Below are positions 13,209 through 58,100 of a stretch of 64,000 nucleotides of DNA, piece by piece (the stretch's first letter is position 1; the number at the start of each line of letters is the position of its first letter). The notes under the pieces were generated by a model, which had not been told where the DNA came from, made no database searches, and saw only the letters and a program-made list of their open reading frames with translations. This DNA comes from Mytilus trossulus. Lineage: Eukaryota. The translations under genes and the position numbers were made by a program. Location of the stretch: assembly GCF_036588685.1 (NCBI RefSeq), contig NC_086385.1, forward strand, positions 28,233,216-28,297,215, read 5' to 3'.

Positions 13209-13339
13209 CCACACCGGTATACTTATGGCCTCTAAATCTATATATTTAGTCTCCCAAAGTCAATGTATGACATCAGTATACAAAGATAAAAAATAATAAC
13301 TATTTACACTATAATATACAAAACAAGAGAAAGAGGTTT

Positions 13340-20320: not shown

Positions 20321-20694
20321 TTATGGTGTAACTGATCCTCAAAATAAATTTAAAATGCCCTGCATGGTGTGGAATAAATTTGTGTTAAATTGATCATACT
20401 TCTTAACTTACTTATTTCAATCAGTTTTAAATATTGTTATAGATGATAGTTAAAGGCAACGATATTACAACAACTGTTCAGCCATTACATTTACAAATTA
20501 TAATCTCAACAATTGTATACTGCCTTAACATGATAACATATAACAATAACTGTTTAAATTTGTTTGCTGGGCATTAATTTACCGTAATTTACCAATTATG
20601 GATTCGGTAATTTCCGCTAAAAAACGAAGTTTACCGAATGATCTCATCATTCATTTATCTCATCATACATCAATCTCATCATACAACAAAAAAC

Positions 20695-22166: not shown

Positions 22167-22197
<31 letters not shown>

Positions 22198-22814
22198 CAT
22201 AGATTATATAATATACTTGATTTAATATCATTGTACATATTCAATACTACATTATACAACTTACCATTTACAGATTAATATTATCCAATAACATTTTATA
22301 AAACAAACCATCTCGTTATATTATGCATCAGTAGATAATTTTATAGCTATTGTTATGAAACATCTTTGAAACTGACTGTGATTTCAATGGTGTCTTTTGC
22401 AATGAATAGAAATAAGAAGATGTGGTATGAGAGCCACTGAGACAACTCTCCATCCAAGTCATAATTTGTAAGAGGAAACAATTATAGGTCAAAGTACGAC
22501 ATTCAACACGGAGCCTATGCTTAAACCGAATAGCAAGCTATAAAGAGCTCTTAAATTTGTTTTTCATTTTCTCAACAGCCGGGAATTTCTTCAACTAGCT
22601 CCTGTATTAACTGATCTTAATCTTCAACCGAAATGTTTAAAACGTTGATTTTGTTAAATTGCTTTGTCTCATTTTCCCTATAAATTGCACTTTCGCTAGC
22701 GATAGACACATATTTGAGCCGGGTAAATAGTTTACAGAAGCAGATGGGAATCAGTTATGAGGTAGACAATAATCATTCAAATCGTAATCATGTTCATTGA
22801 CCATACCGACGATG

Positions 22815-23545
22815 AAAGCACATCATATAATGAAGTGAACCTAACCAAACCATATGAGATTACAAGCACATAATATAATGACACAACCACATCATATAAA
22901 GATGTTTGCACGTAATATAAGGGAAACTGCACATCATATAAATTAATGATATGTACACATCATATAAGGATCTTTGTACATCATATAAGTACCGTATAGC
23001 GGGTTATTTTCGCGGGGTGCAAATTTTCGCTTATTTTCGCGGATAGAACAAAATCGCCAAAATAAGTTCCGCCAAATTAAAGGTGTACATACAAAGGAAT
23101 TAATACAAGTTTTTAATCCGCCAAAATAATAACCGCCAAAATATTTCGTATACCTTGTTCAATAAAAATCGCGAAATTTTACACCCGCGAAAATAACCCG
23201 CTATACGGTATATTTGCACATCATATAAGTACATTTGCACATCATATAATATGGTTGCACATCAAGTAAGAATGTTTGCACATCATATAAGTATATTTGC
23301 ACATCAAATAAGTATATTTTCACATCATATAAGTATATATGCACATCATGTAAGTATGTTTGCACATAATATAATGATGTTTGCACATCATATAAGGATA
23401 TTTGCACATCATATAAGGATATGTGCACATCATATAAAGGTATTTGCACATCATATAATGACAAGTGCACATCATATAAAGGTAAAAGCACAGCATATAA
23501 AGGTAAATGCACATCATATAAAGGCAAATGCACATCATATAATGA
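22815..23545 (-). repeat. 21-bp tandem array, right arm of A
   Basis: Reverse complement of the 8020-9740 array; unit about GCACATCATATAAGTATATTT. Confidence 0.9.
22992..23208. mobile_element. Tc1/mariner/pogo-type MITE inserted in the A array
   Basis: TA|CCGTATAGCGGGTTATTTTCGCGGG ... CCCGCGAAAATAACCCGCTATACGG|TA; removing it and one TA restores a 21-bp unit. Confidence 0.9.
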
Positions 23546-24094
23546 AAATGGTCATAACAAGACAGTGTTGGCGTTCCATAAAAATGACCTGTGGCAGGTC
23601 ATTATGTTATCCTGATTGAAAAACTACTTTAACTGTTTGTTAATAGATATAATTTCTTTTTATTTTACATAAAATCATAACGAAAAGTTGAAAGAAAGGT
23701 TACAAGTCACAGATTTTTTGTAACTCTCAATTTTTGTGTATTGCACCGCATATTCAACATCAGAATACAAGAAATAAAATGATATTCAAAATTTAGAGAA
23801 GTAACTCAAGCATGACGGACATACAGACGATCGGACGAGTAATGGTAGATCTGACTACCCGAAATATCGTGGTCGTGACAGATACAATCCTTTATCTTAA
23901 TAATAAGTTTGCTGATGTCTCTGTTCTAACATAATTATACATGTTTCTTACAATCATCAGTTCTCTATTAAAGTACTTGAAAATAACTGGTGAAAAGAAC
24001 AGACAAGGAATACCTTCGTGGTTTTTTTTTTATTCCATTTTGTGTTGGATAAATATGAATATTGAAAACAAAAGACTAGAAATTACAATGTTTC

Positions 24095-29739: not shown

Positions 29740-29975
29740 TGTCGTAATTACGACATGGCATGTCGTAATTTCGACATAACATGTCGGTATTACGACATCG
29801 ATATGTCGTAATTTCGACATAACATGTCGTTATAACGACATCGATATGTCGTAATTTCGACATAACATGTCGTTATAACGACATCGCTATATCGTAATTT
29901 CGACATAACATGTCGTTATAACGACATCGCTTTGTCGTAATTTCGACATATCATGTCGTTTTAACGACATCGCTA
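29740..29975 (+). repeat. 20/21-bp alternating palindromic array (ATGTCG-N6-CGACAT); also at 48578-48660, 48712-48780 and 51310-51445
   Basis: About 11 units with a 41-bp higher-order period. Confidence 0.9.
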
Positions 29976-30439
29976 TATATAAAAGAATATGTATTATGAT
30001 TGCCAAGAGACTAAATGACACATAAATTAACAACTATAGGTCATCATAATGCCCCTAATAATTAGAAAAGCCCTCACATTATGCTATAAAAGAGGGAGGA
30101 AAGATACCAGAGATAGAGACCCCGAAATGCTGTTATTAATTAATTATTAGCTCCCTTGGTAATACTTCAAATTTCACATTTAATGTATTTCATTGTTAGA
30201 TATTTTACACGAAGCTTAATGAGTATACATTTGTTAATTGCATAGCTTTTGCTATTTGAATTCATTGGTTAGAGATATTTAATTATATTGTAAAGTTTAA
30301 TATTTGCAGCGTCGCAAAATCTTTGGCTACCTTCTTTGGATACCTTCAGTGAGAAACTTATATATTTTATAGAACCCCTCTAATGACCCACGGCACAAAA
30401 TATTTAAATGCTCACCAATCGTCTTCGGGCACCGAGCCG

Positions 30440-33553: not shown

Positions 33554-33974
33554 TATTTACTATTATTATAAGCTTCGTGTAAATTATTAAGCAATGAAAA
33601 ACATGACATTTGGAGTTTTACCAAGGGAGCTAAAAAATAATTAATAACACTGTCTGCCACACAGCATTTCGGGGACTCTTCCTCTGGTATTTTTCCTCGC
33701 TCTATTATAGCTGACTATGCGGGGGCTTTTCTAATTATTGGGGGCACTATAATGACCTATAGTTGTTAATTGTTGTGTCATTTAGTCTCTTGGCAATCAT
33801 AAACTCTGGACACTTTTAATTTGCAAAACACTCATTTGCAAATCCGCCGCCGCCTCAAACAAGAGCTACAATATCATGTATATAACCAAAATGTGCGGAA
33901 TTACATGGGATTCAATAATTTCATTGATTTTATACTGTTACTTTCATATTTATTTTGCAATTTGAATTATAAAA

Positions 33975-34162
33975 ACATGGGATTTTCAATATCCCATGGG
34001 ACAGGGCAAAATCCCATGGGATTTACCATTATCCCATGGGATTTTGGTTAAATCCCATGGGATTTTTTTTGGTCCCATGGGACAAAAAAAATCCCATGGG
34101 ATTTTTATTATCCCATGGGATTTTTAATATCCCATGGGACAACATAAAATCCTATGGGATTA
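33975..34162. repeat. About 20-bp array of the palindrome ATCCCATGGGAT (mirror copy at 48150-48378)
   Basis: About 10 units left and about 12 units right. Confidence 0.9.
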
Positions 34163-36360
34163 AAATTATAAATATATATATATAAATATAAAGTTATGTG
34201 TATGTTACAATGAATGCTGTTTGGTCATGTTGGTAGTAAAATGTTTTAAATGTATACGAGTTTTTTTTATAATTTTTATATATATATACATATATATAAT
34301 TTTTTTGTAAATTTTGTCACAAACATGTTTTTTATTTGTTTATATGACAATAAATATTATTCTTATTTTGGAATGTATAATAATAATATTTTACAGTCAA
34401 AGAATAAAGTTCTTTCACTGAAACAAAATGATGAAATTTCTAAATAAATGAAAAAATATTGTTTTGAAATCTTTGTCTTGTTTATTCTAATATGAAAAAT
34501 AGAACTGAAAAAATATTTCATATTCTGACTGAATAGTTCACTCTTTTCATGAGGTAAGATTTTCTTTGTTATAGGTTCATTGCAATACTTGTATAGGCAA
34601 ACAATTTGAATTATATATACCTTTGTGGTGTACATAAAAGTATGCTTATATTTGCAAATTTATAATATAAACACTTTTTGTTAAAGTTTTTGCTTTCTTT
34701 ATTCACAACTTGCTATATACAATTATTCAGTCCACTATATATGAGTGAAGTCAATAAATAATTTCATTCACTAGAATATTCCTGCAATTCTTAGACAAAA
34801 TATTTTTTCAATCTGTTCTTCAAAGATCTTCCTCTGTACATCTTTATTGAATGGAGAGATTCAAATGAGAAGACAAAGCAAGTTTATTTGGACAACAACA
34901 TTCTAATATCTTGTTCATTCATTCCATCTTTCAATTGATAATTACATTGTTGTATTTATATGATCAAGTTCTTGTGCATCAATGATCGTGATGATATGAC
35001 TCATTTTTGTTTATAGTCATCATGTTGAAATTTCCTCTTTCAAATAAATGTAGGAAAAAACATGTTCCATTTCAAATTAATAAAAAAGTCGCACCATGGA
35101 GAAAAATATCAGCTTTAAGTTTTCCGTTCAGTATTGATCTGTGAATGATGACCATGAAAATTGAGATGTCTGACCTACAAATACACAAACTCAAAAATTA
35201 TCAGTGAAGAGATCAATAAAATGGCTATTTTATCATGTTTATGATTAATATGATAAACTTTCATTTAAATATTCAAGTACTAAATTACAGAAATCACTAA
35301 AATTTTATAATAGTTTAGTTAAAGTACAGCTTATTTAAAATTATAATAAAAAATATAGGCCACCGATGAGTTAAATAAGATATTATATTTCTAATGCCAA
35401 AAAAATGGCATTTTTGCACTAAAGGGAGATAATTTGGAGCTTTTTCAATGATACATATGCATTTCAAAAGTCATCTGGGGCCAAACCCAATTGATTGTTT
35501 TGAATGATTTGGTGTACCATATGATAAAGTTATAAATAAAATGAGTAATGAAAAAAAATTATTAAACATTTTTCTGAAATTGTTATACCCTAGAGCCTCC
35601 TTAAATGTCATTTGATCTCTATTGGAGAAATGTCTCATTGGAAATCAGACTGCTAAGTGTTTCTTATTTTTATATCAACCCAGCCATATTATACCTGTCT
35701 TATATCAGGAGCTTGTACATAGTTCAGTGGTTGATGTTGGTTCATATCCGTCATTTTTTTTTTTCATAATTTTTTGTTTTTGTAAATTAGTCTGGTATAT
35801 TTGACGTTTGAATTGATGCTCTGTTTCAAATTTGGTTAGTGTTGACTTTTATAGATTACTATAACATGTATAGGGTATGGGTTTTCTCATTACTTACAGG
35901 TCATCAATGGCCTCTAATAAGTAATTACAATTCTTACATCCACTAAATTGAACTCTGATGGATAGTTTTCTCTTTCATGATACCACATCTTATTTTAATA
36001 AATATTTAATCATTATTCAAGGACAAAAACTTTTATAACTGTGGACTTACCATTTAGGCTTTGTTGACCTCTGTAAATCTTATTTTGTTGATAATTTCTT
36101 CTGTTTATAGTTTCCCCTTTATCTTTCATGTTCTTGTCCTACACATAAAAGGGTAAACATCATTTAATGACAAAAATAACTACTACATGTATTACATAAT
36201 TAGTAGGCAACTGAAAATGTTGTCTTATTTGTATATATAACATCAACTTACTCATTATTCATGCCGTTCAATATCATGAATATTATCATTATTCTATGAA
36301 TATGAGGTCACAGTAAAATTAACCTTGGCAGGCAGACAGACAAGTAGACCTATGCTTAAA

Positions 36361-36525
36361 AAATCTAAGGCCCAAATTAAAAATATGTTTGTTTCCCCTC
36401 CCCCCACACGGGTCAAAAATAAGCGCCCGAGTCAAAAAATTAAAAATCTAAGGCCCAAATTAAAAATATGTTTGTTTCCCCTCCCCCCACACGGGTCAAA
36501 AATAAGCGCCCGAGTCAAAAAATTA
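36361..36525 (+). repeat. 83-bp tandem duplication
   Basis: aaatctaaggcccaaattaaaaatatgtttgtttcccctc...cgagtcaaaaaatta twice, apparently identical. Confidence 0.9.
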
Positions 36526-36723
36526 TTTTCCACAATAAATGGAAATTATTTTTTTCCTGAAAATAATTTGTTTCCATTTTTGGAAAGTGCTTGGAAGCAG
36601 AAGGATTGATAATCTGAATAAATACACTCAAATTGAGCACAAACAACTGATAAGTGGCCTGGACTGGACAAGTCAAACCATTCATGTGACCATGCTATGA
36701 CAATCACATCCATTTAAAAAAAA

Positions 36724-37862
36724 CTAGAGGCTCTCAAGAGCCTGTGTCGCTCACCTGTTAATGTGTTTACTGATGTCTTATCCATCTTCGTTGGTAGGCG
36801 GGGTCATTAGACACTTTTTTTTAAAATAGATACCCTAGTATTATGATGGTGGCCAAGTTTGGTTAAATTTGGCCAAGTAGTTTTAGAAATGATTTTATAC
36901 AAGTTACAAAAATGACGAAAAGTTGTTCAATATTGACTATAAAGGGCAATAACTCCTTAAGGGGTCCTCTAACAATTTTGATCATGCTGACTTATTTGTA
37001 GATCTTACTTTGCTGAACATTATTGCTGTCTACAGTTTATCTCTATCTATAATAGTATTCAAGATAATAACCAAAAACTGCAAAATTACCTTAAAATCAC
37101 CAATTTTAGGGCAGCAACCCAACAACAGGTTGTCCAATTCATTTGTGAGGGGATAGATCTTATTCTGATGGACATTTAAATCTTGAAAGATTTGCCCTAA
37201 ATGTCTTAGTTGCAAAGATATAAAGCAAAACCTGCATGTTACCACTATGTCCTAATTTTAGCCATTTCAGCCATTTTGTTTGGTAGGCTGGGTCATCGGA
37301 CACATTTTTTAAACTACAAACCACAATGATGATTGTGGCCAAGTTTGGTTAAATTTGGCAAAGTAGTTTCAGTGAGGAATATTTTTAAAAAAGTTACAAA
37401 AAATGATGAAAAGTTGTTAAAAATTGACTATAAAGTGCAATAATTCCTTAAGGGGTCGACTGACAATTTTGGTCATGTTGACTTATTTGTAGGTCTTACT
37501 TTGCTGAACATTATTGCTTTTACAGTTTATCTCTATCTATAATAGTATTCAAGACAATAACCAAAAACTGCAAAATTTTCTTAAAATAACCATTTCACAG
37601 GCAGCAACCCATCAACAGGTTGTCCGATTCGTCTGAAAATTTCAGGGCAGATAGATCTTGACCTGATCAACAATTTAACCCCCAGTCAGATTTGCTCTAA
37701 ATGCTTTGGTTTTTGAGTTATAAGCCAAAAACTGCATTTTACCCCTATGTTCTATTTTTAGCCATGGCGGCCATCTTGGTTGGTTGGCCGGGTCACGCCA
37801 CACATTTTTTAAACTAGATACCCCAAGGATGATTGTGGCCAAGTTTGGTAGAATTTGGTCCA
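36724..37862 (+). mobile_element. 3'-truncated HINE (Helentron-associated) element with about 490-bp core repeats
   Basis: Same head as 49810 (ctagaggctct..agagcctgtgtcgctcacc); ggccaagtttgg recurs at ~36851, 37337 and 37837. Confidence 0.8.
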
Positions 37863-38329
37863 AAGAACAATAAAATGCGGTCATGGTTTATATATATGAA
37901 TCCACACCTTACAATTGTTTCATATCTACCAAATATAATCTACCTGTAACTTTAAACATATGATAAACTGACAAAACAATGCAGTGTTTCATTGACCAAT
38001 GAACCATGAAAATGAGGTCAAGTTCATATAAAATATGACAGACAGCTAAGTGCATCTTACAATTATTTCATTCACTAAATAAAGGGGCCTTATTGCTTAC
38101 AGTATCCGGAAAATAGACCAAACCACAAAAACTAAATATTTTCAAAGTTCCTTATACCCTGCCAATTTGTTATGGTTGTGCCTGTTCCAAGTCAGGATCC
38201 GATAATTCAGTGATTGTCGTTTGTTTATGTGTAACATATCTGTTTTTCAATTTTTTTGTACATAAATTAGGTTGTTAGTTTTCAACTTTCAACTTGGCTA
38301 TCATGTGTCAAATCATACAAGTTTTGGGA

Positions 38330-38542
38330 AAACAGGAAGTTGTCGAGTGATGAATCTGAAAATGCATCACACGGTATAGCTGACTTATTTAACCCTGAAA
38401 CCAAATTTCAGAAATCCTTCTATTGTAGTTCCTAAGGAAAATGTGACGAAAAATATTCATCGGACGGACTGACTGACGCAAGGATGGATGGACAGACAGG
38501 GGTAAAACAGTATACCCCCCCTTTTTTAAAGTGGGGGCATAA
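38330..38542 (+). mobile_element. Short HINE-like element end
   Basis: (GGAC/GGAT)n microsatellite followed by a terminal hairpin ataccccc..ggggcat. Confidence 0.55.
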
Positions 38543-38810
38543 TTTTAATATGGGGCTATAAAAACCCATGCAAGATGTCAAAACAGAAAGAAGTAACCTA
38601 ATTCTTACTTGTTAGGGGCTTTTTATTTATTGTCGGTTATACATATAACAATACAACATATTAAAGGTCTGTCATGTCTGTAGAGCTTTTATCCGACATA
38701 CATATATATGACAAGCACAATACATTTGTACATGAAACATAAAGCTCATCACTGAGATAGTAGTCTCAGATAGAGGGAGGCGGGCTCAACCAAACTCCCC
38801 TATTCAATCT

Positions 38811-39585
38811 GAATGCAGGACAGAAAGTCAGTCAAAAAGTCACACACTGTCCCAGGACAAAAAGTAACATTTTAGTTTTGAGATTATTTTTCTTTGAACA
38901 AAAAAACACTCTTTTTGTATTTTTCTTGAAATTTTATATATACATGAACATGATGTAGCAACTTTAAATTAAAATTTATTAAAAACAAATAAATCAGTGC
39001 ATAAGGTTTGCGCACATTACCATTACATTTGCGCAAAAAAATCACTACGTTTAAGTGCAGCTTTTGATCATGTTGATTACATTTGCACGCATTTTTTAAC
39101 ATATAAATATAAAAAAAAAGATATAGTATGATTGCCTTTTACAGCTGACTATGCGGTATGGGCTTTACCTCGGGCTTTGCTCATTGTTGAAGGCTGTATG
39201 GTGACCTATGGTTGTTAATGTCTGTGTCATTTTGGTCTCTTGTGGACAGTTGTCTCATTGGCAATCATACCATATCTTCTTTATATTGGCTTATGGTTGA
39301 AGGCCGTAAAGACCTCTAGTTGTTAATGTCTGTGTCATTTTGGTCTCTTGTGGACAGTTGTCTAATTGGCAATTATACCACATCTTTTTTATATTATGAA
39401 CAATTTCCTAAAATTAAAAATGAATATATGTAATAAAAAGAAGATATTTCAAAATATTTTTTCATTTATATTCAATCAATTGTCAACAAATTGTTTGTGA
39501 CTTTTTGTCCTATCAACTTTGTTACTTTATGCCTGAGTTTGACATGTGTTTGACTTTTTGTCCAGTGACTTTCTGTTCGTTTACC
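38811..39585. mobile_element. Second copy of the MULE-like MITE, opposite orientation, with an internal insertion
   Basis: GAATGCAGGACAG ... GTTCGTTTACC; TSD TTCAATCT/TTCCATCT (7/8). Confidence 0.7.
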
Positions 39586-39939
39586 TTCCATCTTAATCAG
39601 TGAACTGAATAATTGTTTTTTGCAGAAGTCCAGGGAGTGTTAAAAATCACATGTGCAAGACTTACACAGGGACTACACAATCTCGAGTACACAATACTTT
39701 TTCAGAATGTCAGCAAAAAAGAATCACTGGTGACAGGGGAGTGTAATCGATGAATTGATCCTGAATCAGATAAGATTTTCCCGGTACGTCTAAACACCGC
39801 TCAGGAGGACCTCCTGGGTGCACACATGCAGGGCATACAAAGTGCACTCATGGCAGATCCTATATAGTCGCCGTCGTATCTGCACACATGATGAATGTAT
39901 ATATTCGTTATAGATCGTCATCTCTTCTCAATTTTGGAG

Positions 39940-39994
39940 CATCTTCGCTAGAGAGAGAGCGGGAGTGGATCGTAACCCTTGGCTAGCGAAGATG
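39940..39994. mobile_element. 55-bp mini-element with 12-bp TIR and 9-bp TSD
   Basis: ATTTTGGAG|CATCTTCGCTAG ... CTAGCGAAGATG|ATTTTAGAG. Confidence 0.65.
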
Positions 39995-41350
39995 ATTTTA
40001 GAGTTAAATTTGCAAGCAACCTCTTAAGATTTTAAAATAATAATGGCTACTAAAAATATATTATTGCCTCCAATTTTCGCAATTTTTTCGCCATATAAAA
40101 TATTTAGGCGACTGTGCTTTTAGTGAATATAAACGATGACGAGGCCTCACGAATAAATATAAATATGAAATATACTGGAACATCGATTAGCATAGATCGA
40201 GCAGCAGAGTAAACTTCCACATAAATCTCGAAGTTATTTACGCCGGATGATATAGACTGTGCTCCTGAATAAAGTTGTCAAATACATTAATTTGTGTTTT
40301 TTACTTCTACAAGAAATTTGATTCAAATGCTAATTACGCACCATTTGCTGAGCAGAGAATCATTCTAAGCCAGGAACCGTCTATACTAACTGATAACAAC
40401 TAGTAAGAATAGAAAGTCTCTGTAAAAAGGCAGTCAATCCTAACAGAACTGTATTAACTTAATGATACATGTACATCAAGTTCCAGCACCTCAACATTGA
40501 AGCACCCCTGCCTTGCATACTGAGATGGCAAACTGGTGTGTGTCAGTATTTTAATATAAAACTGCGTAGGTTCATATCGTTTGATTCAACGTTTGTTTGG
40601 TTATTTTTTAATGATCGTTGTAAAATTATATCTAAATCTTTGTTAAAATACGAATTTAAATTGTTCAATTCCTTCTATTTCATAATTTTGTCAAAGTCTA
40701 CTTTTTAAAGTATTAAATTTTACAGAAAAAAATAATATTCCATTTTGATTTGAAGAAAATCTTTTTGAACCGTCATGACATGGTGTTGCAAAGCTGATTA
40801 CAGGTAACTATAACATACAGTAATTTTCCATTACGACAGTGCGTGTATTCTCGGGTGTGTATAACGTATAGTTTTCTAGAGAACATCCTGTCTACGTGTA
40901 TTACAGATTGATGACATTATACAACATTTCTTTGGTTAAATGTGATAAGGTATCTGTGTCCATTCCCTATTTCAACGCCACTAATTTTTCGAAGAAAAAA
41001 AAATTAAAAAAAATTATATGAAATTAAGAAGAAAAGTAGCAAATATAAACTTCAGTAATTGCGCATTGAGTAAACATAATTTCAATATTGCATGAACAAA
41101 TCCGTGAGAAAACGTATATATACATGTATGAATAAAGATGTGTTTAAAAAGACGGCTTTATTTCACACTAGGACCTAAGATAACTAGAACTAAGCAATGG
41201 TTGATCCAGAAATTTTCATAAGTGGGGACTCATTGACTGCCTTAGAGGGGTCACGTCCAGTCATGCTTCCGTGATTCCCTATATAATCTACCATTTGTTT
41301 CCCAAGATTTAGGAGGGGGCTGGTACACTCATATATATATAAATATACCT

Positions 41351-41510
41351 CTGCGGCGGAGCCAGCCATTTGAAAAGGAGGGGGTCCCAACCCAGGACAA
41401 AAGGGGGAGGGGTGGTTCCAACCATATGTCCCCATTCAAATGCATTGATCGTTCAAAAAAGGGGTGGTTCCAACCCCAGAACCCCCCCCCCCCCCCTGGA
41501 TCCGCCACTG
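41351..41510. mobile_element. Short GC-run MITE with CAG..GCGGATCCAG-type TIR
   Basis: ATACCT|CTGCGGCGGAGCCAG ... CTGGATCCGCCACTG|ATACCT; related fragments at 25460-25555, 41195-41320, 43940-44040 and 44560-44616. Confidence 0.7.
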
Positions 41511-44044
41511 ATACCTAGTATGCATATAATTAAGAACAGCTTTGAATATATGCATATAGAATATATATTACAAATGCCAAAACCTGCAAGAAAGAAACAT
41601 TTATATTCGGTGATTTTTACACTAAACGTTTTCGTAATTTGTTTTGAAAATATTAAAAAGTACATGTACATCGTTTTTTCAAGATTTGTATAGTAACTGG
41701 TTTAATTAAGTCCCCTTGATGAAATTTAAATTGCGAGACGCTAATTAATAAACTATGATCTATCTATCGGCATTCGTCGTTATTTGGGATACGTCACGGA
41801 TGACCGATGGTCATATTCAATACGATATACCAATCATCATTTGAATTAGGTCAATTGATCTTTAATAATTAGGACTAATTGGTGATGGCAGAGAATAAAT
41901 CGCTGGTGAAGATTAAAAACATATAGAAGTAAACTTTGCCAAAAAAAAAAGGTTTCCTTGGAAATAATTATGAAAATATATGAATATGCTAAATATTTTT
42001 TTTTCCGAAATAATAATTAAAGACGTTTAGAAATAACAAATTTTCACAGTTGGGAAATTTTCAATTCAAGTTATTTCATTTTGAAAACGTTGTGTGGTCA
42101 TTAGTAAGTTTTCTCTTTGTTATAGCTCTGGGGCCTTGTCTTTATGGAGTATCCCAGTTAAATATTTCGACATCTTATATGACTCTTATATCCTTGAAAC
42201 AATGCAGATCTACATTTTTAATGCATATTAGACGAGAACTTTATTTTATATAGATCAGACCATTTCATGAAATTATGTTTTGCCAAATATGCAAGAAAAG
42301 TCGTATACCAGTTTAACGTTATTATAACGCGACCGTCAAATTACGGTTACGGGGACATTTCATTGGACATCTTAGATCGTTTCGGATTTTCTACCTGCAA
42401 CTCAAACAAAAGTAGATATCATATCATTTTAAAGGAAATTAAATGTGTTTTCCATTCATATCAGTTAACAGGTGATAAAAATTTGAGATATAGTAGAATT
42501 TCGTTTGATAAAAAGCCTCTGAATTATTCTTTGTGTTATTTTGTCCATCGGGACATTTTATTGGACACGGGGAAAATGACGATGTTTTTAAAATAAGACC
42601 GCAGTTACATAATGATGACTTCAGATAGCTTCTTCGGAACATGTATAATTTTTCTGATATTATTAAAATCCATTTTCGTATGTTATATATTATGTAATTA
42701 AAGACAGAAAGGTTTTTTACGGGTTGAGCAGCAAATTGGGACATTTTTTCTCTTTTTTGTTTAAACTTTTCTGACGATCTTCCTACTCTTATAGTCAAAA
42801 ACGTCTATTGCTTCATTTAACGTTAAATTTATACAATATAATTGTAAAATTTTAAACCATTCTACTTACTAATGAATCCGCACTGGGATTTCAAAGACGC
42901 ACCTAAAACAAAATTGTAACAGCGGGACACCCTTAAAATGACGTTATAGGCATCGAAATGAGCATTTTTTTTTCATTAAAAAATTGACAAAACACAAATT
43001 CATCTATGTTATTGATTTCTATGGTTTATTTCCTTTCGAATGATATGCATAACATGGCTATTTATTGTATAGGATAAGAGCATGAATTTGAATAACACGC
43101 TATCTAACCCATATTTCCAAAGTGACACCAATATCGTGCGCAACGTCATAACCATTATATTTCATGACACTGCATGAAAAAGAAATGGACTTATCGCATA
43201 ATACCAGAACCAGAGACATATATATTGTATCTAATATCTCTGCCAGAACTAAAAAAAAATAAATACAGTAAGTCCACATACACATATTAAGAGGGTATGG
43301 ATGTGAATTAACAGAATAGAGAACAAAGGACAAAGAAAAAAAGGAATAAAGAATAGTGAAAGAAAGAGAATAATGTTGAAAAAGTGTAAGTTATTAAAAA
43401 TATAACTTAAAAAAGAAGACAGAAAAAAGACACCCCTCCGAGACGAGCCTTACATGCATTGTTATAATTCAAGGTTAATTTTACGGCGGCTCATTTTATT
43501 TTGGCTTAGAAATAAACATAATTGACAAGTTTCCTTCCCCTGCATTCTCGATCCCACATGTAAATAGCACGGTGATTTCAAAAAGACATTGATACATCAT
43601 TACAACAGTTTCACTTGCCGTCAGTATTTGAATATATTGATGAAGAAGGTATAGAAGATTAATGCACGCACACTATTATCCACCACAGGCCTAAATAGTT
43701 AGTCCGCAAACAACGAGGGTCATAAAAACCCAGCACTTTGAACACAGACACCGGCATGGTGTGAATCTGAAAGCTTCCCACTATCCATTTCTACCCATAG
43801 AAAACTTTTGCCTTTCATTTATCAACAATGAAATATGTTGATATTAATGGTATATAAGAATTATTGGGGAATTCAAACCATTCCTATTGTAAGTGATAAA
43901 ACTGAATTTATATCGGGGTGATTGAAACGAGGAAAATAAAGGGGGGATCAGGAGTTCAGGGCCCCCTGTTTGGGAAAAGAATTAGTTGATTATATATGGA
44001 ATCACTGAGTCATGGCAGGAGCAGGCCCCTCTTAGGCAGTCGAA

Positions 44045-44545
44045 TATGCTATTATCTTGTAAACGGTCCAGATCCCCATCCCTAAACCATATATATTTTT
44101 GAATGGGACGATAAAAAAAATCAAATGAAATTAAAAGGAGGTCTTAGGGGGTTACCCCACCCTGCTCAATTTGAGAATGTGCTATTATCTTGTGAACGAT
44201 CCAGATCCCCACCCCTAAACCATATATATTCTTGTCCATGTTGTCGGGGACAATAAAATTAATAATGAAATAAAATAAAAGTGAAGTCCAACCCCCTCTA
44301 GTTTGAAAACTTGTAAACAGTTAACATCCCCACCCCTAAACCATATTTATATATTTTTGTAAAGAACAATAAAACAAATCAAAGGAAATATAGGGAGAGT
44401 CCATGGGGTTCACCCCCACCCCCACATGTTTGAGATCCCCTGTCATCCAGTGGTTAGGTGAAAAAATTTCAGGATCCCTGATCCCCACCCTCAAACCATA
44501 TATATTCTTGTATGATAATGCGACAATAAAACAAATCAAATGAAT
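44045..44545 (+). repeat. Degenerate tandem repeat, about 120-155 bp, four copies
   Basis: gatccccacccctaaaccatatatat recurs at ~44072, 44204, 44326 and 44480. Confidence 0.75.
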
Positions 44546-45811
44546 ATAGGACCATCCCCTTTGTCTTGGGTTGGGACCCCCCCCCCCCTTTTTTTAAATG
44601 GCTGGATCCGCCCCAGCATACCATCTAGCTATCTATAAAGGCTTTTAAAATATGGAATCAAACAAGGAAATTAACAGTGTAGGCAACTGTCTTGAATTTA
44701 AAAAAAGTCTTTTACATTACCATGATTACATATATAAAAATGTTAAAAATTTTTGTGCATTTATTTTTGCTTATCGTATTTTCAATAATGGACAAAATTG
44801 CATGATTGAATATTGTAATTTAAGAAAAATCAGCATACATGATATAAAATGGGAAGTGGAAACTGGGAATTTGACAAAGAGACAACAATCCAATCAAAGA
44901 GCAGACAACGGCCGAAGGTCACCTATGGGTCTTCAATGCAGTGAGAAAAATTCGGCACTGGTCTTCAGCTCATAAATATGTATCAGAAATGAAAACGAGA
45001 TACAGCTTTCAGTTGCATTAATAAAAACCTCACAATAAGTTCTGAATATCAGAATATACAGTTCTGCAAGATTCTCTCAAAATGTAGACATAGAGCTGAA
45101 AAACTGTCAGTGACTGTAAAATTAATCATGCTTACATTAAAGTCTATGGAGTCTATCTTAATATGCATACTCTCGTACAAAGGAATATAAGTATGCAATA
45201 GACATCAAGTTTTCAAAAATAAGAGTATCTATGCCATTGATTTACAATATTTTAATCAAGTAATAATTTCGGTTTGTTTAAATATTTCGGAGGTTAGTAT
45301 GACCTCCTCTTTGGTGATGATGTGTTCGTTTTAAATTTGGGAAAATTATTTGTACATGTACCAACAAAAATAAAAACACAAAGTCAATCTAGAATTATGT
45401 TTTTATCATTTTTTTATGTTTAGGTTGTCAGCAAGATGAAAAGGACAAGTATGCAGTTCAAAATTCAAAATGTGGATAAGTTGAGGTTCTAGGTCTTACC
45501 TTTGCAGATTTTCATATTTTGCATGAATGAATTCAAAGGTTATGTGATGGACAGCAGAGAAAGAAAAAAACAACTTTACAATTATCCTGCTCCTGGATAA
45601 ATGTAAAACATCTTGTTTTTCGGTAAGTTTCATGCTCTGTTTTGATAGTGTTAGTGCATTCATCTTTCCAGTCTTTCCTCTAAATTGTAAGTTTTTGGTG
45701 AGTGTTCACCATGAATTTCAGTAAGCATGGTAAGTAACTTGTGGATTTACATGTATATATACTCAAAATTTAGTACTAATATTAATGGGATTTGAGCATG
45801 ACATCCGGCCA

Positions 45812-46415
45812 AATAAAATTGAGAATGGAAATGGGGAATGTGTCAAAGAGACAACAACCCGACCAAAATAAAAAAACACAACAGCAGAAGGTCACCAACA
45901 GGTCTTCAATGTAGCGAGAAATTCCCGCACCCGGAGGCGTCCTTCTGCTGGCCCCTGAACAAATATATACTAGTTCAGTGATAATGAACGCCATACTAAT
46001 TTCCAAATTGTACACAAGAAACTAAAATTTAAAAAATACAAGACTAACAAAGGCTAGAGGCTCCTGACTTGGGACAGGCGCAAAAATGCGGCGGGGTTAA
46101 ACATGTTTGTGAGATCTCAACCCTCCCCCTATACCTCTAACCAGTGTAGAAAAGTAAAAGCATAACAATACGCACATTAAAATTCAGTTCAAGAGAAGTC
46201 CGAGTCTGATGTCAGAAGATGTAACCAAAGAAAATAAACAAAATGACAATAATACATAAATAACAACAGACTACTAGCAGTTAACTGACATGCCAGCTCC
46301 AGACTTCAATTAAACTGACTGAAAGATTATGATTTCATCATATGAACATCAGGCACAATCCTTCCCGTAAGGGGTTTAGTAACATACCATCATAACATAT
46401 ATGAAAAGAACATGC
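45812..46415 (+). repeat. Well-preserved abundant dispersed repeat
   Basis: Head aaattgagaatggaaatggggaatgtgtcaaagagacaacaacc; degenerate relative at 44845-44970. Confidence 0.65.
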
Positions 46416-46431
46416 TTGTTAATCATGTTTA

Positions 46432-46716
46432 TGTTCCAGAACATACAAGTATTTGGACTGTATGCATACAGTCTGCCCAATTTTAAAAAGTTGGTCAAGT
46501 TTATTACAAACAAATGTATAGTACAGATCAACATAACTGAAATCTTTAATAGATTAATACAAAAAGTTTAATTGCAGTTAAAATAAAAACACAGGTTTGG
46601 TCGAGCTGGTACCAGACAGTACAAGTATACTTAAATGGTCTGACTATACACATATGGTGGGACTGTAAGTTCTGGACCGTAAAAGTAAGATCCGAATACT
46701 GATATGGTCTGGAACA
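46432..46716. mobile_element. Older copy of the Ginger-like MITE family
   Basis: TTTA|TGTTCCAGA ... TCTGGAACA|TTTA; exact 4-bp TSD; CpG-decayed palindromes. Confidence 0.8.
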
Positions 46717-47141
46717 TTTATACATGTCTTAAAATTAATATCAAACACATTGGTGTTTTTGAACTTGGTAATAAGTTATTTGATAGAACTATAATGTTTT
46801 GGGATATCAAAATCAAAAATATCCCATTTTTACTTTTGATAAAGAAGAAGATCATTGATGTATGTTTAAATGTATATTAAAATGAGACAGCAAGCCAACA
46901 ACACAAAAAATAAGGATAAAACATACATATTTTTTTTGTATCAATGTTATAATTTCCAATATGTTCAAAGAGTTCAAGGTATTTTTTCATTGAAATAAAA
47001 CACAAATTGAAATCTGTCTGAACTTCAAAAGCTTAAAGAAATATTGTTTCTGTTGTCTGCATTTTGTATAATATATTGCAAATTCTTGTGAATAATGGAA
47101 TGTTATTATAGTTGTCTAAAGTTTTAACATTGATCTTTATA

Positions 47142-47346
47142 CTGTAAATTCATAAATTATTGTGTGCATTTATTATTGCGATTCTGTCATTTTAGACTTA
47201 AATGCGATTTTAAATTTTACGATTTTGAGAAAAATCCTGTTTAATCCATATAAAATATTTCATAATGCGAGTTTAAATTATTGTGTCTACAACTCTGTTG
47301 CATTTTTCGCAATAAAAAAAAAATCGCATTAATTCTGAATTTACAG
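47142..47346. mobile_element. Tc1/mariner-type MITE
   Basis: TA|CTGTAAATTCA ... TGAATTTACAG; degenerate relative at ~44740-44830. Confidence 0.65.
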
Positions 47347-49809
47347 TTTATATATATACTATGTATATAACTTGGGAAAATACCCAAATGTTATAAAGAA
47401 GAATAATTTAATTGATTGTTATATGGTATTAGAATAGGAAGATGTGGTATATTGCTAATTTGACAACCCTTCATCAGAGACCAAAGGATGTAGGCTGTTA
47501 GCAACTGATGACACTGGACAACCTGTAACAATCAGTAAAATCCATACCGCATAGCTATTTTTATTGAAAATCATATTATTGCTACATGTATGAAAACAAT
47601 TTTGTATAATCCATTACTTTAGATTTTATTGGTTCTTTTTCAGAAGGATTGAAATTCACCACCTAGAATAAATGGAGAAAACATAGAAACAAGACCAGAA
47701 TAAATTCGAAGACAAAAGTTGGATCAGTTATTATTTTCATCACTCAGTCAATGATTTGAAGTTCTTTTAAATTCAAAAAAATATTGAAACCACAATAATG
47801 TCAAAGTTCTGTACTGAATGTCCAAAAAGTGGACTATACCATCAAACAATGCTGGATGATAAGAAACTATTAATGTTTTGTGTTGAGAGATATGGCAAAT
47901 AATTGTGTTTCAAGAAAGTATTCTATAATTCATGAATAAACATATATTGATACTTACATTATCTGCTTTGTTGTTTAAAAGTTTAGTTTTGAACAGTTAA
48001 CAAATGTTAAAGAACAATATGCTAAATTAACATTTCCCAAGAAAAAAAGATATTCAATTAAAAAGATTCATCTTATAATAATTTACTACCAAATAGAATA
48101 CATTGTAACATACACATTACTGTTTATATATATCTATATATTTACAATTAGAATCCCATAGGATTTTAATTTGTCCCATGGGATATTGAAAATCCCATGG
48201 GATAATAAAAATCCCATGGGATTTTTTTTGTCCCATGGGACAACAAATATCCCATGGGACTACAATAATCCCATGGGACAAAAAAAAATCCCATGGGATT
48301 TAACCAAAATCCCATGGGATAATGGTTAATCCCATGGGATTTAGCCCTGTCCCATGGGATATTGAAAATCCCATGTTTTTATAATTCAAATTGCAAAATA
48401 AATATGAGAGAAACTGTAGAAACCCAATGAAATTATTGAATCCCATGTAATTCTGCACATTTTGGTTATATACATGATATTGTAGCTCTTGTTTGAGGCG
48501 GCGGCGGATTTGCAAATGAGTGTTTTGCAAATTAAAAGTGTCCAGTGTTCATAATACATATTCTTTTATATACAGCTATGTCGTAATAACGACATAGCTA
48601 TTTCGTTATTACGACATGTTATGTCGAAATTACGACATGCTTTGTCGTAATTACGACATAATATTTTTTTTTTGAATGGCCCTTATCGGCTTCCGTAGTA
48701 CATACATCACTATGTCGTAATAAAGACATCACTACATATGTCGTAATAACGACATCACTTTGTCGTAATAACGACATCGCTATATATATAAAAAAAAAGA
48801 ATATGGTTTATATATTATGATTGCCAAGAGACTAAATTACACAGAAATTAACAACCATATGTCATTGTAATGACTTCAATAATGAACAAAGCCCCCGCAT
48901 AGCCAGCTATAAAAGGTCACAAAATGACAAATGTTAAACAATTTAATTCAAACGAGAAAATCAACGGCTTTATTAATGTACAAAAAAATGAACGAAAAAT
49001 AAATATGTTACACAGCCACTGAATTACATGCTCCTGATCTCATAATTAGGACAAAATTAGCGTTATCACTTTTTGAGGCGATAGGAAATTCGATATGGTC
49101 GTTAGTGAGAGCAAAGTTTGTAATTGATCTTTTTTCAGAATAATGAACACCAAATGCAATCTAGCCTACAGTTATATTACTTGCACACAATACAACTTTA
49201 TTTTATAATCAAGTATAATGAGACCCGGTTGCACAGGGGAGCGATTCAGACTCTTTGGAGCCACCAGTTATGTTTGACATGTACAGATTCATGTAAAATA
49301 AGACTGCATTTCTATTGCAGGTTATAAAGAAGAGGAATTGTTTAAAGCTTTTCGCAATAAAGACTATGTTAAATTTTGGACTCATAGTGCTCAGACCCAT
49401 GGACCTCTGTACCATCATTTGTACACAATTGAATCTTAATGTCCTACTGATGCTTGATGCACATTACAAAAATACAGCGTCCTCCCCATTGAAGCCTTAA
49501 TTATAACTTTGGACCTCAAGTTTTTTAAACAAATATTCCCCATGACAACTATTCCTACAAACTTAGGGAGAGGTTTATGATACCACTAACATGTTTAACC
49601 CCGCCACATTATGTATGAATGTGCATGTTCCAAGTCAGGAGTCTGTACTAAATAAAGGATCTAAATAGCCTGAATCGTTCATCATTTCAATGGGTCCCAT
49701 TATACTTGATTATGAAATAAAGTTCTATTATGTGCATACATATAGATTAAATAAAATTAATATTAATTATGAATAAACTTGATTGAATTCAATGTTTATC
49801 ATTATAAAA

Positions 49810-50936: not shown

Positions 50937-52148
50937 AAAAATGAATATGTTCACGATAGGGTTTTGATACAAACTTTGCCCTTACTAGCGGCAATTTTAA
51001 AACAGGTGAAAAGTTAACGTAAAAACTCTTTTTAAGGACCCGGATATTAGGTACATAATGTATACTTATACTAACTTAAAGTTTAAACTCTGTCATTTTA
51101 GCGATCTTGAAAAGAAGATTTTGTACATTAATTCTTCAAAGTCCCTTGGGGCCATTAGTTTTAACCAATTGGTAACTAAGTAACAACACTTGAATAGGAC
51201 ATTATAGGGTACACGTATATCAAGTTTGATTCAATTCTGATAGGTGGTCCTTAAAATAAAGATAAAAATAAATTCCACTAGTGTATCAATGCTCACAAAG
51301 TAACAACGGTTGTCGTAATTACGATATAGCGATGTCGTTATTACGGAATAGCGATTTTGTTATTTCCACATACTATGTCGTTATAGTACGACACAGCGAT
51401 GTCGTTATTACGACATACTACATGTTTGTCGTGGTTACGACATAAATAATATTTTTTTCGAATGACTCTTATCGGCATTCGTACAATATACTTTTAATTT
51501 ATTAACTGTAACATAAAATAAACTTATGTTCTTGTTATAATTTTGAAATTATTGTTTAGTCTGTTATCATTTGTTTTGAATCGGTTCGTTTATTTTCTCA
51601 GTTGAATAGTTTTTCATTTGTCTAGTGTGGGCCTATAATATGTAACTATGGGGTACGGGTGATGCTCATTCTTGAAGGCCATATACTGACCTGTATTTGT
51701 TAATTCAGCCAGTTGGTCTCTAGTAGAGAACTACCTCATTCGCAATCATGCTATATATTCTTTTTATTTGTATTTCCATCAGTTTGTACAATGAATTGTC
51801 TACACAACAAAAAGTTTAGACGCAATGACAAACATGCGTTTGACAATGTTTTTCCCGGTCCTCAATGATGCTGCACGTAGTATTTTCCTCTTTCTGCATG
51901 CGAATTGGGTCTATATTGAAAAAAAGAATTATGTACAACTATAAAGAAGACAGTGGAAATGATATTCAAAAGAACAAATGATTCAATTAAATTAAAACTA
52001 AAAAAATAACAATCGTATTTTCTTCCATGTACAATAGAAATGAGTTAAAGAAGTACTTACCTGAGTGTACAAGTGATGACACCTAAAAGATGAAATAAAT
52101 CTTATATATGTGAAATAAAATGCTCATCGAAGTTTGGTTGCAATATAA

Positions 52149-55100
52149 ATGAAAATACATGAGTGTCTTACTCTTTTAGTTAACACCGACGGCAGTTTGA
52201 GGGTATCCACAAAACAAAGTTCCACAGCTATAAAGTTGTTGTCACCATTATCAAGTACAATTATTCCTACTACAACTAAACCAATCAGCAATACTATACC
52301 GTTCAGTATAAATATACCTACCAGTACAACTATACCTACTATTAAAACTCCACCTTCCCGTACAACTACACATATATTTACCACTACATCTACCAATACT
52401 ACTTTACTAACCAGTACGACTATACCTACCAGTACAGCTACACCAACCAGTACAGCTACACCAACCAGTACAACTACACCAACCAGTACAGCTACACCAA
52501 CCAGTACAACTATACCAACCAGTACAGCTACACCAACCAGTACAACTATACCAACCAGCCCAACTATAGCTACCAGTACTAATACACCAACCAGTACAAC
52601 TGTACCTACCAGTACTTCTACACTAAGCAGTACAACTGTACCTGTAAGTACATTTACCCCTACATCTACTAGTACACCTTTATCTACCAGTACTGCTACA
52701 TCAAAGATGACAACTAATCCTACCAGTACAACTATAGCTACCAGTACTACTATACCTACCAGTACTTCTATACCTACAAGTACAAAAACAGTAACCAGTA
52801 CTACTACATTAAGAAGTACAAAAGTGCCTATCAGAAGAACTATACCTACCAGCACAACAACAATAACCAGTACAATTGTACCAACCATTATTATTATACC
52901 TACTAGGACGACTACAATTGTGCCTAGTATTACTACTATACCTAGCAGTACTACCTCACCTACCAGTACTCCTACACCTACAAGTACAACTACTCCTACT
53001 AGTAAATGTATACATACCAGTACTACCACTACACCAACCAGTACAACTGTACCTCCTAGTACTACTGTACATTCAATATACTCCAATTCTTCAACAATTA
53101 CCAGTACAACTATACCTACCAGTACAACTATACCTACAAGTACAACTATAGAGACCAGTACTAATACACTAACCAGTACAAATGTACCTACCAGTACAAC
53201 TACACTAACCATTACAACTGTACATGCAAGTACACAAACTAGTAAAACTATACCTTACAGTAGAATTGTACCGACCAGTACAACTGTACCTACCATTACG
53301 ACTGTACCTACAAGTTTAACTAAACCTACAAGTACAATTATACCAACTATTACAACTGTACCATCCAGTACTACTAAATTAACCAATACATATGTACCTG
53401 TAAGTGCAATTATACCTACCAGTACAACTTCTCCCACAAGTACAACTACAACAACAAGTACAACTATAGCTACCAGTACTACTACACCTAATAGTACAAC
53501 TTTACTTACGAGTAAAACTGTACCTCCTAGTACTACTACACCAACCAGTACAATGGTACTTACAAGTACTACACTATCTTTAAGTACTACTATATCTACC
53601 AGTACAACAGTGCATACCAGTACAACTGTATTTACCAGTACTACTGTACCAATCAGTACATCTGTACCTGTAAGTACCACTATACCGTCCAGTAGAACTG
53701 TACTTAACAGTGCCATTATACCTACCAGTATAAATTCTCCCAAAAGTACAACTACACCAACAAGTACAATTATAGCCACCAGTAGTACTACTTCATCTAG
53801 TGATACAACTATACTTACGAGACCACATGTACATTCTAGTACTACTACACCAACCAGTACAATTGTACTTTCCAGTACTACAATACCTACCAGTACTACT
53901 ATATCTACCACTACAACTGTACCAACAAGTACATCTATACCAACCAGTAAAACTGTATCTACCACTACAACTGTGCCTTCCAGTAGTTCTACACCTGCCA
54001 CTACGACTGTACCTACCAGTGCAATTATACCTAGGAGTACAACTTCTCCCACCAGTCTTACTATACCAACCAGCAAAACTGTATTAGTTAGTACAACGAC
54101 ACCTAACAGTACATCTGTACCTATAAGTACCACTATAACTTCCAGTAAAACTGTACCAACCAGTACAACTATACCTACCAGTACAACTTTTCTCACCAGT
54201 ACACCTACACCAACAAGTACAACTATAGCTACCAGTACTACTACTTCACCTAGTGGTACAACTTTACTTACAAGTACAACTGTACCTCCTAGTACTACTA
54301 CACCTACCAATACAATTGTACTTTCCAATACTACAATACCTACCAGTACTACTATATCTACCAATACAACTTTGCCTTCCAGTAGAACTGTTTCTACCAG
54401 TAGTTCTACACCTGACACTACCAGTACAATTATACCTAGGAGTACAACTTCTCCCACCAGTACTACTATACCAACCAGCACAACTGTATTAGTTAGTACA
54501 ACTACACCTAACAGTACATCTGTACCTATTAGTACCACTTTACCTTCCAGTAAAACTGTACCTACCAGTGCAATTATACCTACCAGTACAACTTCTCTCA
54601 CCAGTACAGCTACACCAACAAGTGCAACTACAGCTACCAGTACTACTGATTCACCTACTAGTACAACTATACTCACAAGTACAACTGTACCTCCTAGTAC
54701 TACTACACCAACCAGCACAATTGTACTTACCGTTAATACAATACCTACAATTACTTCTATATCTACCAGTACAAATGTGCCTACTAGAACAATTGTACCT
54801 ACAAGTACTACTACACCTACTACTACAACTACAAAAACCAGTGCAATTATACCTACCAGTACAACTTCTCCCACCAGTACAACTACACCAACAAATACAA
54901 CTATAGCCACCAGTAGTACTACTTTACCTAGTAGTATAACTACACTTACGAGAACAAAAGTACCTCCTAGTACTACTATACCAACCAGTACAATCATACT
55001 TACCGATACTACAATAACTTACAGTACTACTATATCTACCAGTACAACAGTGCCTACCAGTAAAACTGTACCTACAAGTATTACTATACCTACTAGTACA

Positions 55101-58100
55101 ACTACACCAACCAGTGCAATTATACCTACCAGTACAACTTCTCCCACCAGTACAACTACACCAACAAGTACAACTATAGCTACCAGTACTACTACTACAT
55201 CTAGTATTACAACTATACTTACGAGTACAACTGTACCTCCTAGTCCTTCCACACCAACCAGTACGATTGTACTTACCAATACTACAATACCTTTCAGTAC
55301 TTCTATATCTACCAGTACAGCAGTGCCTTTCAGTGCAACTGTACCTGACAGTACTACTATACCAACCAGAACAACTGTATTATCCAGTACTACTACACTA
55401 ACCAGTACATCTGTACCTGTAAGTACCACTGTACCTTCCTGTAGAATTGTACCTTCCATTGCAATTATACCTACCAGTACATCTTCTCTCACCAGTGCAA
55501 CTACACTAACAAGTGCAACTATAGCTAATACTACTACTACTTCACCTACTAGTACAACTATACTCAAGAGTACAACTGCACCGCCTAGTACTACTACACC
55601 AACCAGTACAATTGTACTTACCGGTAATACAATACAAACCAGTATTTATAAATCTAACAGTACAACTGTGCCTACCAGTACAACTATACCTACCAGTACA
55701 ACTGTACCTACAAGTTTTACTACACCTACAAGTACTACTACACCAACCAGTACTATTATACCAACTAGTATATCTGTATCTGTAAGTACCACTACACCTT
55801 CCAGTAGAACTGTACCTACCAGTGCAATTATACCTACCAGATCAACTTCTCCCACCAGTACAACTTCACCAACAAGTACAACTATAGCTACCAGTACTAC
55901 TACTTCACCTTCTAGAACAACTATACTCAAGAATACAACTGTACCTCCTAGTACTACTACTACATCCAGTACAATTGTACTTACCAATACTACAATACCT
56001 ACCAGTACTACTATATCTATCAGTACTACTACATCTACCAGAACAACTGTATTTTCAAGTACTGTACCTTTAACTACACCAACTAGAACATATGTTCATC
56101 TCAGCACTACAACACCTACAAGTACAAATATACCTACCAGTACAACTGTACAATCCAGTATTACTACACCTTCAAGTACGACTACACCAACCAGTCCAAT
56201 TAAACCTACCATAACAACTTCTCCAACCAGTACAACTACACCAACAAGTACAACTATAGCTACCAGTACTACTACTACATCTAGTAGTACAACTATACTT
56301 ACGAGTACAACTGTACCTCCTAGTACTTCCACACCAACCAGTACGATTGTACTTACCAATACTACAATACCTTCCAGTACTACTATTTCTACCAGTACAA
56401 CAGTGCCTACCAGTGCACCTGTACCTACCAGTACTACTATACCATCCAGAACAACTGTATTATTCAGTACTACTACACTTACCAGTACATCTGTACCTGT
56501 AAGTACCACTGTACCTTCCAGTAGAGTTGTACCTACCAGTGCAATTATACCTACTAGTACAACTTCCCTCACCAGTGGAACTACACCAACAAGTACAACT
56601 ACAGCTACCAGTACTTCTACTTCACCTACTAGTACAACTATACTCAAGAGTCCAACTGCACCGTCTAGTTCTACTACACCAACCAGTACAATTGTACTTA
56701 CCAGTGCTACACTACCTGCCAGTACTACTATATCTACCAGTACAACTGTGCCTACCAGTAGAACTGTGCCTACAAGTTTTACTACACCTACTAGTACTAC
56801 TACACCAACCAGTACTATTAAACCTATCAACAATACTATACCAACCAGTACATCTGTATCTGTAAGTACCACTATACCTTCCAGTAGAACTGTACCTTCC
56901 AGTGCAATTATACCTCCCAGTACAACTTCTCCCACCAGTACAACTGTTCCTCCTAGTACTACTAAACCAATCAGTACAATTATACTTACCAGTACTACAA
57001 TTCCTACCAGTACTACTATATCTATAAGTACTACTACATCTACCAGAACAACTGTACCTTCAAGTACTGTACCTTTAACTACACCAACTAGTACAACTGT
57101 ACATTCCAGTACTACAACACCTACAATTATACCTACTAGTACAACTATACCTTCCAGTACTAATACACCTACCCGTACAACTGTACTTTCCAGTACAACT
57201 ACACCAACTAGTACAACTGTACCTTCTAGTACAACTGTACCTACCAGTGCTACTATACCTTCAAGTACAACTGTACCTACCAGGACAACTACACAAACCA
57301 GTACAACTGTACCTACTAGTACTACTATACCTACAAGGACAACTACACCAAGCAGTACTACTACACTGACCAGTACAACTTTACATGTTAGTACTACTAT
57401 ACCTACTGGTACGACTCTACCTAATACTAGTACAACACCTGTCAGTAAAACTACATCATCTAGTACAGCTGTATATCCCAGTACTACTACACCTAACAAT
57501 ACAACTTCACCAACAAGTACAACTGCATTTATCAGTAAAACTGTACTTTCCAGTACAACTATACGTACCAGTACTACTACTCCTATAAGAACAACTACAC
57601 CTACCAGCACTACTTCACCTACTAGTTCTTCTATACCTACCAGTACAACTGTACCATCGAGCACTACTACATTAACCAGTACAACTGTACCTTTTAGTCC
57701 GACTATACCTTCCAGTAGAATTGCAACCACTAGTACAACTTTACCTGTACCTTCAATTACAAATGTAACTACCACTACAACTACACCAACCAGTACAACT
57801 GGTACTACTACACCTACTTGGACAACTATACACACCAGTACTACTTTACCTACCAGTAGTAATATACCTACAAGGAAAACTGTACCTACCATTACAACTG
57901 TTCATACAAGTAGTACTATACCTACTAGTACAACTACACCAACCAGTACTTCTATATCTACCAGTACTACTATACCAACCAATACATCTGTACCTGTAAG
58001 TACCACTATACCTTCCAGTAGAACTGTACCTACCAGTGCAATTATACCTACCAGATCAACTTCTCCCACCAGTACAACGTCACCAAGTGCTACTATAGAA

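Follow-up and report, generated by a model that had tools for sequence, protein, structure and literature searches.

What kind of transposon is the 14.7-kb element that interrupts a repeat arm in Mytilus trossulus? It lies in a 64,000-nucleotide stretch of contig NC_086385.1 (positions 28,233,216 to 28,297,215, assembly GCF_036588685.1), here called the window, which belongs to contig C13 of the 1.3-Gb genome that we searched. It is named D, as in the original prediction, which had given it ACAC...GTGT ends and a 6-bp target site duplication (TSD) and supposed an unclassified lineage recalling Polintons. We find that D is a cut-and-paste transposon. It probably belongs, as a non-autonomous member, to the Sola1 giants with AAC...GTT ends, and a DDD transposase with the DUF7869 domain, made by another element, probably mobilises it in trans. 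Its lineage can hardly be called unclassified, since three DUF7869 families of the same genome and the giant element Sola1-1_Ec32 agree with it in their ends, their architecture and the length of the duplication.

The ends and the duplication were examined in 31 end pairs, namely 30 of the 35 visible facing pairs in the genome, each compared at both ends, and the window copy. A precedes ACAC in 31/31 left ends and T follows GTGT in 29/31 right ends, and this near constancy across copies makes both bases, omitted in the predicted ends, a part of the element. With the ends set as AACAC...GTGTT, the 4-bp duplication is exact in 23 of the 31 pairs and has at most one mismatch in 26, whereas a 5-bp duplication occurs in one pair and the predicted 6-bp model fits only one, the window copy itself. 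That copy has TCATAA on both sides because its target has T before CATA and A after it.

D is inserted in one arm of a neighbouring repeat, and the empty site is kept in the sister copy of this repeat (window 29953-30022). The predicted site is indeed there, but it divides as GGCAAT-CATA-ATACAT with CATA once, so the duplication is CATA rather than TCATAA. Likewise, the large element with its long terminal inverted repeats (TIRs) stands, at 14,748 bp with TIRs of about 424 and 462 bp, while its boundaries are corrected from 33797..48554 to 33802-48549 by the 31 end pairs. The insertion about 150 bp from the terminus of the neighbour also holds, the neighbour's end being near 48700 to the right of D. 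The left end of the window copy is mutated, AACTCTGG having a single change from the family's AACACTGG that makes AACTC of AACAC. In substance, we found what the original prediction had named as counting against itself, a different duplication length in other copies or likeness to a described kind.

The D family is real, young and high-copy. Its terminal 25-mer has 188 exact matches in the genome versus 0 for a control, and 184 (79 + 105) when extended by the extra A, which corresponds to about 90 copies. The 14 full copies, 14.7–27.3 kb long, differ by 1.2–2.9% from the majority of their own subfamily. At least two subfamilies are present, nine interiors including that of the window copy sharing one layout and five having a rearranged one. 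The TIRs of D are alike at 172/180 of the outermost bases and both contain an array of palindromes, which are likely to be the binding sites of a transposase.

The extra length of the long copies consists of nested elements resembling long interspersed nuclear elements (LINEs) and of satellites. These, not a transposase, also account for the size of the copies of 22–27 kb and those of 31 kb (examined in part) and 45 kb. Dispersed-repeat matches, scored against 580 kb of unrelated loci, cover 5,457 of the 14,748 bases of the window copy. Since nested repeats are common to copies, D kept moving after acquiring them.

As predicted, D lacks evident coding capacity. There is no long open reading frame (ORF) in the window copy, no Pfam match over the cut-off in the 150 frames scanned of the 212 stop-free ones of at least 36 aa in one full copy, and no Rfam match to D. 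The transposase annotation that the original prediction proposed for long, little-diverged copies was run on the 14 full copies and found none; a profile of 14 transposase relatives gave a best E of 4.2 on them and recovered every exon set in control elements. The own DDD transposase gene of a Sola1 element is thus missing from these copies, as is expected for a non-autonomous member.

Elements with such ends that do encode a transposase exist in the same genome. A search with PF25273 (DUF7869), which we take to be a Sola1-type domain, gave 139 matches, mostly single exons, among the 150 scored of 202 candidates. Three large families combine AAC...GTT ends, 4-bp duplications exact in 10/12 pairs, spliced DUF7869 transposase genes and palindromic-motif arrays near the ends inside long inverted repeats.

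The family S1 (G000:C1:68476957-68499194), of 9–40 kb and with palindromic-motif arrays, has the ends AACACTG...CAGTGTT. Among its six end pairs, four have exact 4-bp duplications and one further has one with a mismatch, and four enclose DUF7869 exons. Its transposase gene is intact with at least 12 exons, and two copies are about 99% alike. The opposite strand of S1 has repeat-rich open frames, maybe of a second gene, and these show no coding match to D.

The family S2 (G000:C1:42969759-43011354), of 24–42 kb, has the ends AACACG...CGTGTT and AGTATCGATACT arrays, with an exact 4-bp duplication and DUF7869 matches inside in 4/4 pairs; the exon layout of its spliced gene is unlike that of S1. 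A third family (G000:C9:14191075-14224480), of 33 kb, has AACAG...CTGTT ends, CCATTCCAGAATGG arrays and 2/2 exact duplications. The exons of S2 and the third family are homologous to the S1 transposase. S1 and S2 share with D the AACAC...GTGTT ends, the 4-bp duplication, the long repeats with palindrome arrays and, at 9–42 kb, the large size, but they differ by the spliced transposase gene, by other array motifs and by fewer exact ends (12–13 each versus 184–188). The first 22 bases of D and S1 are alike at 17/22, and those of an older D copy and S1 at 19/22. Judged by end sequence, S1 would be the nearest candidate partner of D, while its arrays differ. Sister families sought by the first 12 bases of D gave 86 matches versus 62 in a control and no facing pairs.

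The S1 exons have open frames, and the database protein that they match is P0001, of 792 aa, labelled 'uncharacterized' by NCBI. One protein that is identical to an exon of a related element carries the NCBI label Mytilus trossulus, in line with a Mytilus mussel as the host. Its model, with a mean predicted local distance difference test score (pLDDT) of 74, has an RNase H-like core, in which D357, D435 and D477 form a DDD triad conserved in the 10 relatives displayed. Hence, an element with the same kind of ends as D encodes a DDD transposase. Structurally, P0001 comes closest to DDE transposases and integrases, with TnsB, IstA, Mos1 and integrases of retroviruses at the top, though each match is weak (best E 1e-3). 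With E values of at most 0.001, its relatives fall into 17,108 clusters, the named ones being in oyster, sea urchin, lancelet and acorn worm, and cluster look-ups of 10 distant relatives of the transposase gave only Branchiostoma by name and no moss or alga. The literature searched held no paper mentioning 'DUF7869'.

A giant AAC-ended Sola1 type has already been described from a brown alga, and D is a new member. Sola1-1_Ec32 is 21,549 bp long and terminates in AACCG-CGGTT; its TIR measures 282 bp, its TSD is of 4 bp with a bias to A as the last base, and its best match is Sola1-1_PPa (PMC12477816, supplement file 1 row 117; citations here and below are to the accessible parts of the papers). 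Compared by description only, it resembles D in the AAC...GTT ends, the 4-bp duplication, TIRs that are several hundred bases long and a length over 10 kb, but it is autonomous, has a ParB/methyltransferase accessory gene and ends in AACCG instead of AACAC. The Ectocarpus genome has giant Sola-1, KDZ and EnSpm elements with fixed nested insertions, some giant families being non-autonomous, and fully non-autonomous families there carry transcribed genes (PMC12477816). D is like these families in its shared nested insertions, its transcribed interior and its lack of a transposase. It is also like the Pack-MULE-like giants of that study, which are large and non-autonomous with a transcribed and spliced interior, though no host gene source was identified for the exons of D.

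The compact Sola1 elements are another type. An AWWT target is the Sola1 hallmark (PMC3845634), and AWWT is only 1/23 (AATT) of the exact D targets, which are AT-rich and varied, C or T being favoured at the preceding base and G or A at the following one. D therefore does not belong to the compact AWWT type. In a compact 4.2-kb family of this genome (G000:C5:40.88 Mb), the repeats span 37 bp and start with G, and the duplications are ATAT or AAAT. This family encodes a DUF7869 protein of 667 aa and of the DDD type, whose relationship to P0001 speaks for Sola1. This family and the insect Sola1 (PMC3845634) share the 4-bp duplication with D but differ from it in that their short inverted repeats begin with G, their targets are AWWT, their single ORF is unspliced and their length is 3–5 kb. 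The accessible parts of PMC5751038, PMC5199201 and bioRxiv 2021.09.26.461848 held nothing on ends, and no AACAC-ended mollusc element was found in the literature searched, Repbase and most subscription papers lying outside the search.

Several results weigh against our assignment. Past base 22, an alignment of the repeats of D with those of S1 is no better than one of shuffled sequences (score −3.5; shuffled mean −10.8, sd 10, max 17.5). The array motifs of S1, S2 and the third family differ from those of D, and no element combining the transposase with the ATCCCATGGGAT arrays of D was found. The D array motif occurs in none of the 12 DUF7869 regions examined, which cover fewer than half of the loci that gave the 139 matches, and the CCCATGGG motif is absent from five of the regions examined. 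A comparison by eye placed none of the 139 matches inside the D end pairs listed.

Moreover, eight of the 31 pairs are without the exact 4-bp duplication, and the targets are not AWWT-specific. The profile of 14 relatives gave a best E of 0.25 on five further regions, so, together with the 14 full copies, these searches do not show that the interior descends from a transposase gene. The link between DUF7869 and Sola1 is putative, drawn from features of the elements. D probably works like Sola1, and its formal membership is tentative.

The following mechanism is suggested by the anatomy of the element and the working of DDE/D transposases. A transposase from another element would bind D at the arrays of palindromes within its long TIRs and cut at its AAC ends. 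These ends would then be joined to an AT-rich target with a 4-base staggered cut, producing the 4-bp duplication. The interior would be a passive load that has grown by nested insertions during the continued movement.

D and its AAC-ended relatives could instead be a separate deep DUF7869 group, sister of Sola1, which we consider unlikely. P0001 is merely 21% identical to the compact AWWT-type protein (625 columns, E 2e-15), and the two types differ in ends, target preference, size and intron content. In a tree built from 36 selected proteins, namely 12 of the 18 from one search, 23 of the 83 from another and the compact protein, the AAC-ended and compact-type sets are split by a long branch with an SH-aLRT (Shimodaira-Hasegawa-like approximate likelihood-ratio test) support of 100. 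However, this tree is quick, unrooted and long-branched, and its two sets came from separate searches with no named Sola1 reference among them. The AAC-ended Ectocarpus giant, moreover, is already classed as Sola-1 and has Sola1-1_PPa as its best match (PMC12477816).

It is quite improbable that D is a non-autonomous Kolobok-type element. Kolobok elements end in RR...YY and target TTAA; in KolobokP, the duplications vary between 3 and 5 bp, are non-specific in sequence and are accompanied by direct repeats (PMC9587614). The AA...TT ends of D and the 5-bp duplication of one pair fit these features, and elements with the Mutator domain (PF20700) are abundant in the genome with 114 matches. However, none of six Mutator-domain families resembles D in its ends; four have TTAA followed by GG at one end at least, and a fifth has a TTAA-flanked right end. 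D has only inverted repeats at its ends, without the long terminal direct repeats of KolobokP, and TTAA is 1/23 of its targets. The D end motif appears once in the accessible KolobokP supplement, at an internal position (PMC9587614).

More improbable still is a placement of D in CMC (Chapaev type), with its ends read as CAC...GTG and 4 bp duplicated. CAC does come after the first two bases of D; Chapaev has CAC ends and a 4-bp duplication, and CAC...GTG termini are those of CMC (CACTA, Chapaev). However, the outer AA and TT are missing at the empty site and do not vary between copies, so the termini of D are AAC...GTT, in agreement with the predicted exclusion of CACTA. There is next to no chance that D is Polinton-like or otherwise unclassified with a 6-bp duplication, for which the TCATAA on both sides speaks in the window copy alone; Polintons (Mavericks) have a 6-bp duplication with integrase and pPolB genes, and the 150 scanned frames have no Pfam match over the cut-off, while the disproof of this duplication in favour of 4 bp takes the resemblance away.

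Raw reads of four public runs mapped at 97%, and their source copy, individual or species may differ; they reveal two weak, outward-pointing spliced RNAs with short frames from the D family. The minus-strand intron 35172/36049, with CT..AC ends, is found in 4/4 runs (1, 3, 33 and 4 reads). The plus-strand intron 45621/47643, with GT..AG ends, is found in two (0, 0, 27 and 7 reads) and in contigs too. A joint at 36136/39688, with 14 reads over the four runs, is non-canonical as placed and may be a deletion form rather than a splice. The frames of both RNAs gave no matches, and the 43-codon stretch in the rightward last exon had no usable match in the ESM Atlas. The features of D are collected in the table.

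Table. Features of element D in the window (positions in the 64,000-nucleotide stretch; a dot means no strand)
Feature	Position	Strand	Basis or remark
Whole element D, family ends AACAC...GTGTT	33802..48549	.	14,748 bp
Left copy of target duplication CATA, 4 bp	33798..33801	+	End-pair comparison and empty site in sister repeat
Right copy of target duplication CATA, 4 bp	48550..48553	+	End-pair comparison and empty site
Left TIR, about 424 bp	33802..34225	+	Starts AACTC in window copy
Right TIR, about 462 bp	48088..48549	-	
Left array, 9 copies of palindrome core TCCCATGGGA	33992..34160	.	Spacing 19-21 bp
Right array, 11 copies of palindrome core TCCCATGGGA	48150..48385	.	
Block of dispersed host repeats within D	36717..38561	.	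Common to subfamily copies
Piece private to window copy	42093..43147	.	Replaces about 3 kb present in other subfamily copies
600-bp high-copy repeat	45815..46411	.	Inserted in window copy only
Probable first exon of leftward RNA	39688..39964	-	Joint 36136/39688
Exon of weakly expressed leftward spliced RNA	36049..36138	-	Joint 35172/36049; 30 open codons, no Pfam match
Last exon of leftward RNA, 3' end roughly placed	34400..35174	-	Read depth and joint
Exon of rightward spliced RNA	45509..45622	+	Joint 45621/47643; 5' limit from sequence
Last exon of rightward RNA	47645..47945	+	43-codon open stretch without match

Around some copies of D, other arrangements were seen. At G000:C6:49951716-49987823, inverted and incomplete duplicates of a full copy lie on both sides of it, which amounts to a local rearrangement. 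The locus from G000:C13:40022227 onward has the left arm of an older D, about 77% alike, at about 10 kb from a long frame that is innexin-like by its sequence. A second such arm lies near the same gene, which looked like cargo of D. However, the flanks of the two loci are the same, so they represent a single insertion, and the search gave no right end; cargo is therefore not supported. With these shared flanks, contig C20 would here be a second haplotype of C13.

In the window, the nested neighbours of D at 7984-23580, 16133-21326 and 29696-51490 have TA-starting ends and similar sub-terminal arrays, and their duplications, like that of D, could be misread. IS3EU/GingerRoot elements have TA..TA ends and 6-bp duplications (PMC10045372). 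This group was rejected for D, which has neither and shares with it only being a TIR element, and the predicted exclusion of the TA-ended type was right; TA-starting ends are seen in the neighbours. At 52001-63850, a Thr-rich open frame of 3,950 codons made of short tandem repeats is mucin-like with a strong GC skew. Elsewhere in the genome, DUF7869 exon matches crowd contig C5 at about 17–87 Mb, perhaps by local hopping or as a domesticated gene family, and tandem Mutator-domain units of 4.0–4.4 kb lie at G000:C1:16.03-16.10 Mb, 22.32-22.38 Mb and 55.01-55.03 Mb, as described for KolobokP multimers.

The assignment moves D from an apparently unclassifiable to a placed element, whose about 90 copies at 15–27 kb would make up roughly 1.5 Mb of the genome by our estimate. 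AAC...GTT ends, a 4-bp duplication and palindrome arrays together form a signature that can aid the sorting of 'unknown' mollusc repeats. The relatives of D have intact intron-rich transposase genes in recent elements of 20–40 kb, which are labelled as uncharacterized host genes. Bivalve Sola1 elements have a mean length of 5,445 bp in a survey whose curated elements had ORFs longer than 300 aa (PMC10294476), so the giant elements may be undercounted.

A broader view, which we put forward tentatively as possible rather than probable, is that the AAC...GTT giants are a distinct old DUF7869 branch in algae and marine animals and that D derives from it as a high-copy element that carries passengers and has two genes itself. 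If this is true, the AAC...GTT branch has been missed in animals, with its transposase spread over a dozen exons in elements of 20–40 kb and annotated as host genes.

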